A stretch of 64,000 nucleotides of DNA. Source: a virus. The DNA lies in IMG/VR virus record IMGVR_UViG_3300030042_000123, positions 6,941 to 70,940 of that record. One strand, given 5' to 3'. Positions within the stretch are counted from its first letter, which is position 1; every line of letters begins with the position of its first letter. Position numbers and translations under genes: made by a program. The notes under the pieces were generated by a model that worked only from the letters and a program-made list of their open reading frames with translations, had not been told where the DNA came from and made no database searches. Of the stretch, positions 36,366 through 36,589 are shown piece by piece.

Positions 36366-36589
36366 TCGGGGAACGTAACTACCTTCGTTCCAATTCATCG
36401 CTCGTAACCTTAACGGACCTAAGGCAGTGAAATTCACCACACGATGACCCAGCGTTTTTCGTTCCCCGAATCTTCGCGAGCCGAGCATTCACCTCGGTGC
36501 TTACAAGCGGCTATTCAATTTGCCACTCATCCCGTACTGACCCACAGGCGGCTTTACCCGGTTAGTGGGGATTTCTGGATGCTCGCAAA
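36366..36589 (-). ncRNA. Candidate ~225-nt multi-branched structured RNA of unknown class
   Basis: Nested helices: TTTGCGAGC/GCTCGCGAA, CATCC/GGATG, CCCAC/GTGGG, AGTGGC/GCCGCT, CCGAG/CTCGG, TCGGGGAACG/CGTTCCCCGA, TCATCG/CGATGA, GTGGTGA/TCACTGC, CCTTAG/TTAAGG; G-U pairs favour the minus strand. Confidence 0.6.

Follow-up and report, generated by a model that had tools for sequence, protein, structure and literature searches.

A structured RNA element conserved in soil and peat jumbo phages carries a core complementary to helix 69–70 of 23S rRNA

This report concerns a 104-nt structured RNA element at positions 36366-36469, minus strand, of a 64,000-nt stretch of viral DNA (the window), which comes from a 120-kb IMG/VR contig (IMGVR_UViG_3300030042_000123) representing ~36% of a jumbo phage. 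The element lies in a 294-nt spacer (36297-36590) between the gene of a 488-aa virion or head-type protein and that of a 221-aa probable tail tube protein. Its apical core (36403-36435, minus strand) corresponds, as a reverse complement, to nt 1909-1941 of 23S rRNA, the hairpin of helix 69 together with the strand of helix 70 next to it, and the same core recurs in phages that are otherwise unrelated. Helix 69 forms intersubunit bridge B2a, the central bridge, and has a role in decoding, termination, and ribosome recycling; the helix 69–70 stretch is among the most conserved in bacterial 23S rRNA. The reading put forward here, tentatively and at a little under an even chance, is that the RNA base-pairs through its antisense core with 23S rRNA or with the 50S subunit.

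The limits of the element come from its relatives. Among those collected at 80 loci encoding homologues of the 221-aa protein, the recurring part of the spacer is spacer positions ~117-258 (window ~36470-36333), that is, the element and a little downstream sequence. The original prediction, made from the window alone, had described almost the whole intergenic region (36366-36589, ~225 nt) as a single RNA of two multibranch domains. The homologues do not bear this out, since both conservation and the strong covariation seen across 23 distinct sequences are found only in the second domain (domain 2), which is the element. The 23 homologues were gathered with blastn, nhmmer, and a covariance model from IMG/VR and the JGI metagenomes. 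The model, R1, was built from an alignment of 12 sequences; it matched more divergent members in IMG/VR (L011, L016, L021, L030, and L073) and others in the JGI metagenomes (L188, L213, L226, L240, and L251 among them).

The boundaries and helices of the element are defined by R1, RNAalifold, and covariation. Given a plain MAFFT alignment of the 12 sequences, fitted to no model, RNAalifold returned P1 (10 bp), P2 (3 bp), and P3 (7 bp) with compensatory changes. P1 closes the element, its 5′ strand (36460-36469) pairing with 36366-36375. Seven of its 10 pairs are changed on both sides, 98.3% of its cells are paired, and in L011 and L073 its sequence is wholly different with the pairing retained. 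P3 joins UCAUCGU (36441-36447) to GCGAUGA (36395-36401), and 6 of its 7 pairs are changed on both sides. P2 (36451-36453 with 36381-36383) is a weak helix with marginal support, paired in 85.5% of cells, mostly by G-U, and it is followed by an invariant GGG (36448-36450). P5 is a 3-bp hairpin, CGU/ACG (36403-36415), complementary to the helix 69 stem; its pairs are nearly invariant, and its loop ranges from 5 to 10 nt across members. All of these features are on the minus strand, as is a semi-conserved, purine-rich joining strand 3′ of P3, UUGGAACGAAGG (36382-36393; alignments A1, A2, and A5), which is not derived from rRNA. Conservation outside the rRNA-like core extends to the GGG that precedes P3, to the purine-rich GGAACGAAGG strand, and to J1/2, which is A-rich.

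In the full 23-sequence alignment, 94.9% of cells are paired, compared to 78.9% after shuffling and ~40% when the partners are slid. Changes on both sides are seen in 16 of the 23 pairs, and the observed values were reached by none of 500 shuffles; because this alignment was fitted to the model, its counts lean towards structure. Without an imposed structure, RNAalifold recovered P1 and P5 from it. Since the helices can form on either strand, the strand is decided by the balance of G-U and A-C pairs only. This balance falls at 56 G-U against 11 A-C cells in total, 22 against 0 in P3, and 12 against 4 in P1, in keeping with the earlier claim that several G-U pairs work only on the minus strand. 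The gene-sense strand is also the more stable one in 21 of the 23 members. The G-U bias, taken with the orientation of the genes, favours the minus, gene-sense strand as the putative functional one.

The 23 homologues come one to a genome, and five large contigs each have a single copy. The element always stands at the same site, in most members starting 2-8 nt past the upstream stop codon. In a tree of the tube protein, the rows with the element fall in a single clade, in which 18 of 20 carry it, a pattern that fits one gain and about two losses. Phages outside the clade have the same gene pair with spacers of 60-70 nt that lack the element. On the tree, then, the element is vertically inherited and not patchy. 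Sequence comparison gives good support for regarding it as an 85-110-nt structured RNA of a family found neither in Rfam nor in the literature searched, and carried by a single clade of jumbo phages from soil and peat. A coding explanation was considered and rejected. A 52-aa open reading frame (ORF) at 36330-36488, minus strand, starts in the non-conserved first domain, and the indels are mostly of 1 nt (58 of 97 runs); in L011 and L012, the element has stops in all six frames. The element co-occurs with tRNA genes in the window and L003 only. A TROVE (Ro/Rsr) partner protein was found in one of five element-bearing genomes, the element had no match to YrlA, and RtcB was not found. The single TROVE-domain protein, of 494 aa and Ro60/Rsr-like, is encoded at G002:C1:19952-20647 in one element-bearing jumbo phage (the contig of L015) and is missing from the four other genomes.

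The connection to rRNA appeared when metagenomes were scanned with the family's own conserved core pattern in a search for more members, and most of the matches were 23S rRNA genes. The plus strand of 36403-36435 has 28 of 33 identities to Escherichia coli 23S nt 1909-1941. The alignment score of the window to 23S rRNA is 41, compared to 20 +/- 2.1 for shuffles and 19 for the other strand (z ~10), and overall the scores are 41-46 against 19-32 for the other strand. All family members align at one site, nt ~1909-1935/1941. Put in terms of pairing, the core of the window and 23S rRNA could form 28 Watson-Crick and 2 G-U pairs with 3 mismatches over 33 positions, while for each of the 23 members the possible pairs with nt ~1909-1935/1942 number 21-32 Watson-Crick and 0-3 G-U. 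The predicted duplex energy is -45 to -50 kcal/mol in 22 of the 23; in L073 it is -33.6 kcal/mol, at another site. The motifs CUUAGG, CCGUUA, and GUUAC are almost invariant while the surrounding stems are wholly turned over within the clade, which indicates that the core is under purifying selection.

The similarity is confined to this core. Its flanks have no significant similarity to rRNA beyond nt 1909-1942, none was seen in the rest of the spacer or in the spacers of element-less relatives, and blastn-short of the whole window against an rrn operon returned nothing. A second complement noticed by eye, CAUCGUG with nt 1964-1970, was not significant (p ~0.03-0.2 per sequence); RNAduplex uses it in seven members. 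The metagenome scan also gave, among others of this kind, five JGI contigs (L193, L201, L252, L208, and L212) that have a perfect helix 69 region and otherwise barely align to E. coli 23S rRNA, some with a tRNA-like T-arm nearby. These are probably very divergent, reduced, or fragmented large-subunit rRNA genes of unusual organisms and not phage elements.

The core is not restricted to one clade of phages. In IMG/VR, an 18-nt pattern of the core matched 32 stretches and its reversed form 5, and 4 of those 5 control matches were inside long ORFs. The 32 comprise 13 from this family, 1 true 23S gene, and ~10 further groups with unrelated flanks. Seven of these outside groups are intergenic, and in 6 of the 7 the antisense is on the gene-sense strand, often just past a stop codon. 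The settings vary. For example, the core follows the major head protein gene in the L328 group, precedes terL in L330 and L337, precedes a radical-SAM gene in L325/L345, and in the L324 group stands between a 190-aa ORF and a terminator. An intrinsic terminator lies 3′ of the core in four groups (L324, L325/L345, L328, and L330). In L325/L345, the complement reaches ~nt 1893-1930, with ~33 of 37 positions matching as read from the printed sequence. R1 neither detects the other lineages at full length nor unites them with the window family.

In L322 and L337, the core is near ROOL RNAs and tRNA arrays. The ROOL RNAs themselves (Rfam, 203-215 bits) are at L322:1235-1817 (minus) and L337:65-653 (plus); the core of L322 is ~40 nt downstream of its ROOL RNA on the same strand, and that of L337 is ~1 kb downstream, past three tRNAs. 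Cultured phages carry the core as well. The T5-like vibriophages PWH3a-P1, qdvp001, R16F, and 10AMN share, amid divergent flanks, an invariant block of ~70 nt that includes the complement of nt 1907-1930. The block is on the strand of the phage genes and tRNAs, and both of its departures from a perfect complement are G-U-compatible only for an antisense RNA. It sits just upstream of tRNA genes in R16F and 10AMN; no tRNA was found in the stretches of PWH3a-P1 and qdvp001. The block lies within L354:1284-1757 (PWH3a-P1, NC_020863.1 ~80654-81127) and also in L355-L357. A small ORF rich in Cys (MKCDKCEK...), not annotated, ends 16 nt short of the block in PWH3a-P1 and 10AMN. In the vibriophages and in L325/L345, a conserved UCGCUACC, the complement of nt 1930-1937, stands further downstream of the core, in permuted order; in the window family, the 23S complement is contiguous over 33 nt.

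Extended, conserved complementarity to a defined target RNA, as is asked of an antisense RNA, is present in all 23 members, with 23S rRNA as the predicted target. In the mechanism proposed here, the covarying stem (P1, the weak P2, and P3) would close an apical region of 45-55 nt and expose the anti-23S tract. The RNA would accumulate after being made within the late structural transcript, or after being cut out of it. The apical region would then pair in vivo with 23S rRNA on free 50S subunits or with unassembled pre-23S RNA. Pairing on the free 50S subunit or during assembly is proposed because the stem holds a tract that complements a hairpin exposed on the free subunit and buried in the 70S ribosome. 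Pairing might tether, occlude, or protect the helix 69–70 part of the ribosome. Its outcome could be to block subunit joining, to tether the 50S subunit to late mRNA, to shield the site, or to act as a splint at the site for repair.

A literature search returned no paper on phage RNAs complementary to 23S helix 69, and to our knowledge no natural bacterial or phage RNA has been described that targets this helix. The recurrence of the core is a phage theme for which no published description was found, and it makes the element more interesting than it was at first description. It points to an undescribed route by which phages may reach the translation machinery, one that uses neither proteins nor tRNAs nor mRNA signals but RNA-RNA pairing with the large subunit. 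If the reading is true, natural antisense RNAs would have rRNA as a further kind of target, and some stable RNAs in phage tRNA clusters that are as yet unassigned might be accounted for in the same way.

Several observations weigh against pairing with the ribosome. Helix 69 is exposed on the free 50S subunit, and the region is largely buried or base-paired in the mature 70S ribosome, which means that access needs a free 50S subunit or nascent rRNA. The window's own core is mismatched at 3 of 33 positions, and the distinct core variants show no clear wobble bias (8 of wobble type compared to 16 of mismatch type). The complement of the helix 69 loop differs in length between members, which makes loop-loop kissing with this helix less likely. 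In the minimum free energy (MFE) fold, part of the window core pairs internally with a short sense-like AAGGUAG, so a structural role is possible. The mean fold z-score is -2.76 for the gene-sense strand and -2.04 for the opposite one, an energy edge that is mostly base composition. Neither a sigma-70 promoter nor the phage's own TTCCTAKC-N20-TAKAAT motif was found near the spacer, and no intrinsic terminator was found within 36200-36700. Finally, in L333 the core is opposite in orientation to its tRNA array.

Some of these points feed an explanation in which the core was captured once from rDNA and exapted as a structural or protein-binding module, such as an operator bound by a phage protein or an element that stabilises or processes the 3′ end of an mRNA, and never pairs with rRNA; what keeps it conserved would then be the fold of the RNA or its protein partner. 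The non-rRNA parts listed above are conserved alongside the core, the core can pair internally, and two linked changes in L021 and L030 fit a local hairpin. The lack of a clear wobble bias towards 23S rRNA and the position of most members 2-8 nt past a stop codon, like a 3′-UTR structure, would also suit such a module. However, a single private fold or partner is hard to square with an antisense core that stands in unrelated phage scaffolds with different flanks, and within the clade it is the stems that change freely and the rRNA-complementary bases that are fixed. Exaptation of this kind is considered unlikely, and it is still the alternative to be taken most seriously.

A second explanation would make the plus strand the functional one, as a small mimic of 23S helix 69–70 that serves as a decoy for a factor or toxin. 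The plus strand does fold better than its shuffles (z ~-2.0 to -2.4), and L333 has the sense orientation within its tRNA array. A sense copy is also found in a Myxococcota metagenome-assembled genome (JBMOMJ010000016.1; L318:657-2451), whose operon comprises rsr (Ro60 vWA), YrlA (57 bits), and rtcB. Between YrlA and rtcB (L318 830-851) lies a 22-nt copy of 23S nt ~1916-1938. About 0.5 chance matches of this kind are expected in the whole collection, so the 22-mer may be a coincidence, striking as its position in an RNA-repair operon is. Against a plus-strand mimic, the G-U and A-C counts favour the minus strand, the neighbouring genes all run on the minus strand, and no promoter motif for the plus strand was found nearby. 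In addition, the helix 69 loop, which ribosome factors contact, is conserved neither in sequence nor in length, and the gene-sense strand carries the antisense in seven lineages (the family and 6 of the 7 intergenic groups) as well as in the cultured vibriophages. Taken together, these make a decoy on the plus strand distinctly improbable.

The original prediction had offered a cis-acting regulator of the tail gene, a switch, or a ribozyme, and this too now has only a slim chance. The element is ~70 nt upstream of a tube gene that is probably highly expressed, and the alternative GGAACG/CGTTCC hairpin, described as competing with the 10-bp helix, is present in the window. As a conserved switch it fails, since it is absent from the divergent members L011, L073, and L030, where P1 differs in sequence. 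The ribozyme and riboswitch families were unmatched, and for the self-cleaving classes this holds at E<=10. Control of the tube gene is made unlikely by nuclease ORFs that lie between the element and that gene in L010, L012, L015, and L021, by outgroup phages that have the gene pair without the element, by the insertion of domain 1 upstream without loss of the element, and by a separate module directly before the tube ATG (described below).

The weakest explanation, a DNA-level feature with no RNA function, either host rDNA filler from double-strand-break repair in a homing-endonuclease hot spot or the target of an rDNA-specific homing endonuclease, draws on the nuclease genes clustered near the spacer (EndoVII/HNH at 34880-35335 and 38502-38936, GIY-YIG in L010, and ParB-like in L012 and L015) and on a 23S stretch that presumably overlaps the I-CeuI/I-CpaI-type target region, and is very improbable given that the flanking helices covary with a strand-specific G-U bias, that the core is under purifying selection in a clade with fully turned-over stems, and that other phages show the same bias in orientation relative to transcription. 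A target or relic of the I-CeuI type in particular was rejected, as none of 5 genomes (3 complete) has a LAGLIDADG domain (PF00961 or PF14528), and the neighbours are of the EndoVII/HNH, GIY-YIG, and ParB-like types.

Returning to pairing with 23S rRNA, a more specific and much more speculative version would have the RNAs act as a guide or splint. Through pairing across the helix 69–70 stretch, 23S rRNA cut by a ribotoxin would be held as a nicked duplex and could be resealed by phage ligases of the Rnl2 type, or the site would be shielded from cleavage. If true, this would be RNA-guided protection or repair of rRNA that counters abortive infection, with analogues in T4 tRNA repair and in the guide-RNA-bridged ligation of kinetoplastid RNA editing. 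RNA ligases are encoded in G002, G003, G004, G006, G007, and G008 at two or three per genome (Rnl2-like, PF09414, and in some Rnl1-like, PF09511). Every complete genome with the element has them, but so, equally, do relatives without it, which makes their presence uninformative, and the guide or splint role is regarded as a long shot.

Several known systems resemble the element in part. The antisense RNAs CopA/CopT of plasmid R1 and RNA I/RNA II of ColE1, and small RNAs (sRNAs) derived from phages or 3′-UTRs, likewise combine a closing stem with an exposed, conserved tract of long complementarity. The 3′-UTR-derived sRNAs share with the element a position just past a stop codon, and in other phage lineages the core is then followed by an intrinsic terminator. 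The predicted target of the element, however, is rRNA and not an mRNA or a replication primer, and unlike the 3′-UTR-derived sRNAs, the spacer of the window showed no terminator, promoter, or Hfq-type features. A further comparison is with the rRNA-complementary guide RNAs of archaea and eukaryotes, namely the C/D and H/ACA sno/sRNAs and U3 and U8, the last two of which chaperone pre-rRNA folding; these are also structured small RNAs with a tract complementing conserved rRNA. Their complementarity is 10-21 nt or a bipartite pocket, whereas that of the element is 22-33 nt and contiguous. The element has no C box (RUGAUGA), D box (CUGA), or K-turn, only a CGAUGA that is part of P3, and its match to SNORD18 is at chance level (12.3 bits compared to a threshold of 41). 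As far as we know, bacteria lack the partner proteins of sno/sRNAs.

The calicivirus TURBS pairs with 18S rRNA and retains post-termination ribosomes for reinitiation. Like the element, it is rRNA-complementary and placed by a stop codon between two ORFs. It differs in being directed at small-subunit rRNA from a position upstream of the stop-start site, whereas the element complements large-subunit helix 69–70, is downstream of the stop, and has no conserved spacing to its neighbours. Another comparison is with rRNA-mimic leaders, such as those of ribosomal-protein operons and the 23S-methyl motif, where rRNA-derived sequence is also found in an mRNA region. Those leaders are sense mimics that bind an rRNA-recognising protein, while the gene-sense strand of the element is antisense and has no Rfam match. 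A sense mimic of the ribosomal-protein leader type was rejected, since the plus strand is the rRNA-like one and the minus strand is that of the genes and of the G-U bias.

The remainder of the region first described as one RNA is domain 1 (36473-36589, minus strand), 117 nt long and set between the element and the stop codon upstream of it. It is carried by the window and L004/L005/L093 only, and those contigs are 94% identical over the whole spacer. Because a conserved stop codon precedes it and domain 2 starts 2-8 nt after the stop in most relatives, domain 1 is a later, lineage-specific insertion outside the conserved element, and the element tolerates it on its upstream side. Its termini are 9-bp inverted repeats (UUUGCGAGC/GCUCGCGAA), and its fold z-scores are -2.4 (minus strand) and -2.2 (plus strand). 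A scan of IMG/VR for further copies with an invariant 17-mer gave chance coding matches only, and domain 1 has no similarity to rRNA. There is a possible AAG duplication at its borders, and 2 of its few differences from L004 preserve hairpin pairing.

Other parts of the first description can be set against the same data. The two closing helices (9 bp and 10 bp) and the internal stems are all present in the MFE fold of 36366-36589 (minus strand), and it is their union in one molecule that is lost. What was called a novel phage noncoding RNA holds for the 104-nt domain 2 and not for the 225-nt two-domain molecule. Folding of 36366-36589 is moderately better than that of dinucleotide shuffles (z-score -2.2 for the minus strand, -2.4 for the plus). 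Since this is only moderately above chance and equalled by the opposite strand, energy alone is no proof of function for either domain. The remark that the sequence does not match tRNA or several other known RNA classes was borne out, as neither Rfam nor ARAGORN gave a real match in the spacer. A cmscan search of 35500-37500 and 36350-36485 against Rfam 15 at E<=10, covering hammerhead, twister, pistol, hatchet, HDV-like ribozymes, riboswitches, tRNA/tmRNA, YrlA, and ROOL, gave chance matches of 11-17 bits compared to thresholds of 41-90. The ARAGORN scan for tRNA and tmRNA found none in the spacer; its only find was a tRNA-Pro(GGG) at 35469-35556 (minus strand).

All genes near the spacer are on the minus strand, and the phage has a distant relative in Tunturiibacter phage Tunturi_5. 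The tail sheath gene (38946-42611) comes first, followed by an EndoVII/HNH nuclease gene (38502-38936), an ORF of 144 aa listed between it and the next gene, and the gene of the 488-aa protein (36591-38057). After the spacer come the gene of the 221-aa protein (35631-36296), the tRNA-Pro(GGG), and a second EndoVII/HNH gene (34880-35335). The earlier labels of a head-protein gene and a tail tube gene are roughly right. The 488-aa protein has no family match; its C-terminus (...GLALVASAE*) and stop codon are kept in all relatives. The label of the 221-aa protein comes from protein-language-model features only, by which its nearest named Atlas clusters are Phi812_tail_tube and DUF2001, and these are to be taken as a lead only. 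Its homologue in Tunturi_5 is annotated as "virion structural protein," its AlphaFold model (pLDDT 32) is unusable, and it is probably a tail tube protein. A PDB sequence search with both neighbouring proteins gave no match.

The two EndoVII/HNH genes are paralogous (Pfam PF02945, E ~1e-22) and lie on either side of the sheath-to-tube region; their products are probably homing endonucleases of the free-standing kind. The spacer itself is an insertion hot spot. In the relatives with nuclease ORFs between the element and the tube gene, the element keeps its place beside the upstream stop codon despite these insertions. The ORF in L010 (2304-2990) is of the GIY-YIG type, and those in L012 (2524-2940) and L015 (2555-2935) are ParB-like with a DGHHR motif, labels that come from reading motifs and not from Pfam. 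The sequence GATTTCGCAA is not a repeated motif. Directly 5′ of the tube ATG (36300-36330, minus strand), the sequences contain a module made up of YAGAA, a short GC-rich hairpin, and a ribosome-binding site (AGGAG, also read as GGAGG). It is found in all relatives, whether the element is present or not (for example, in L011, L013, L014, L016, L049, L055, and L073), and may mark the place where a transcript is processed or where a highly abundant mRNA begins.

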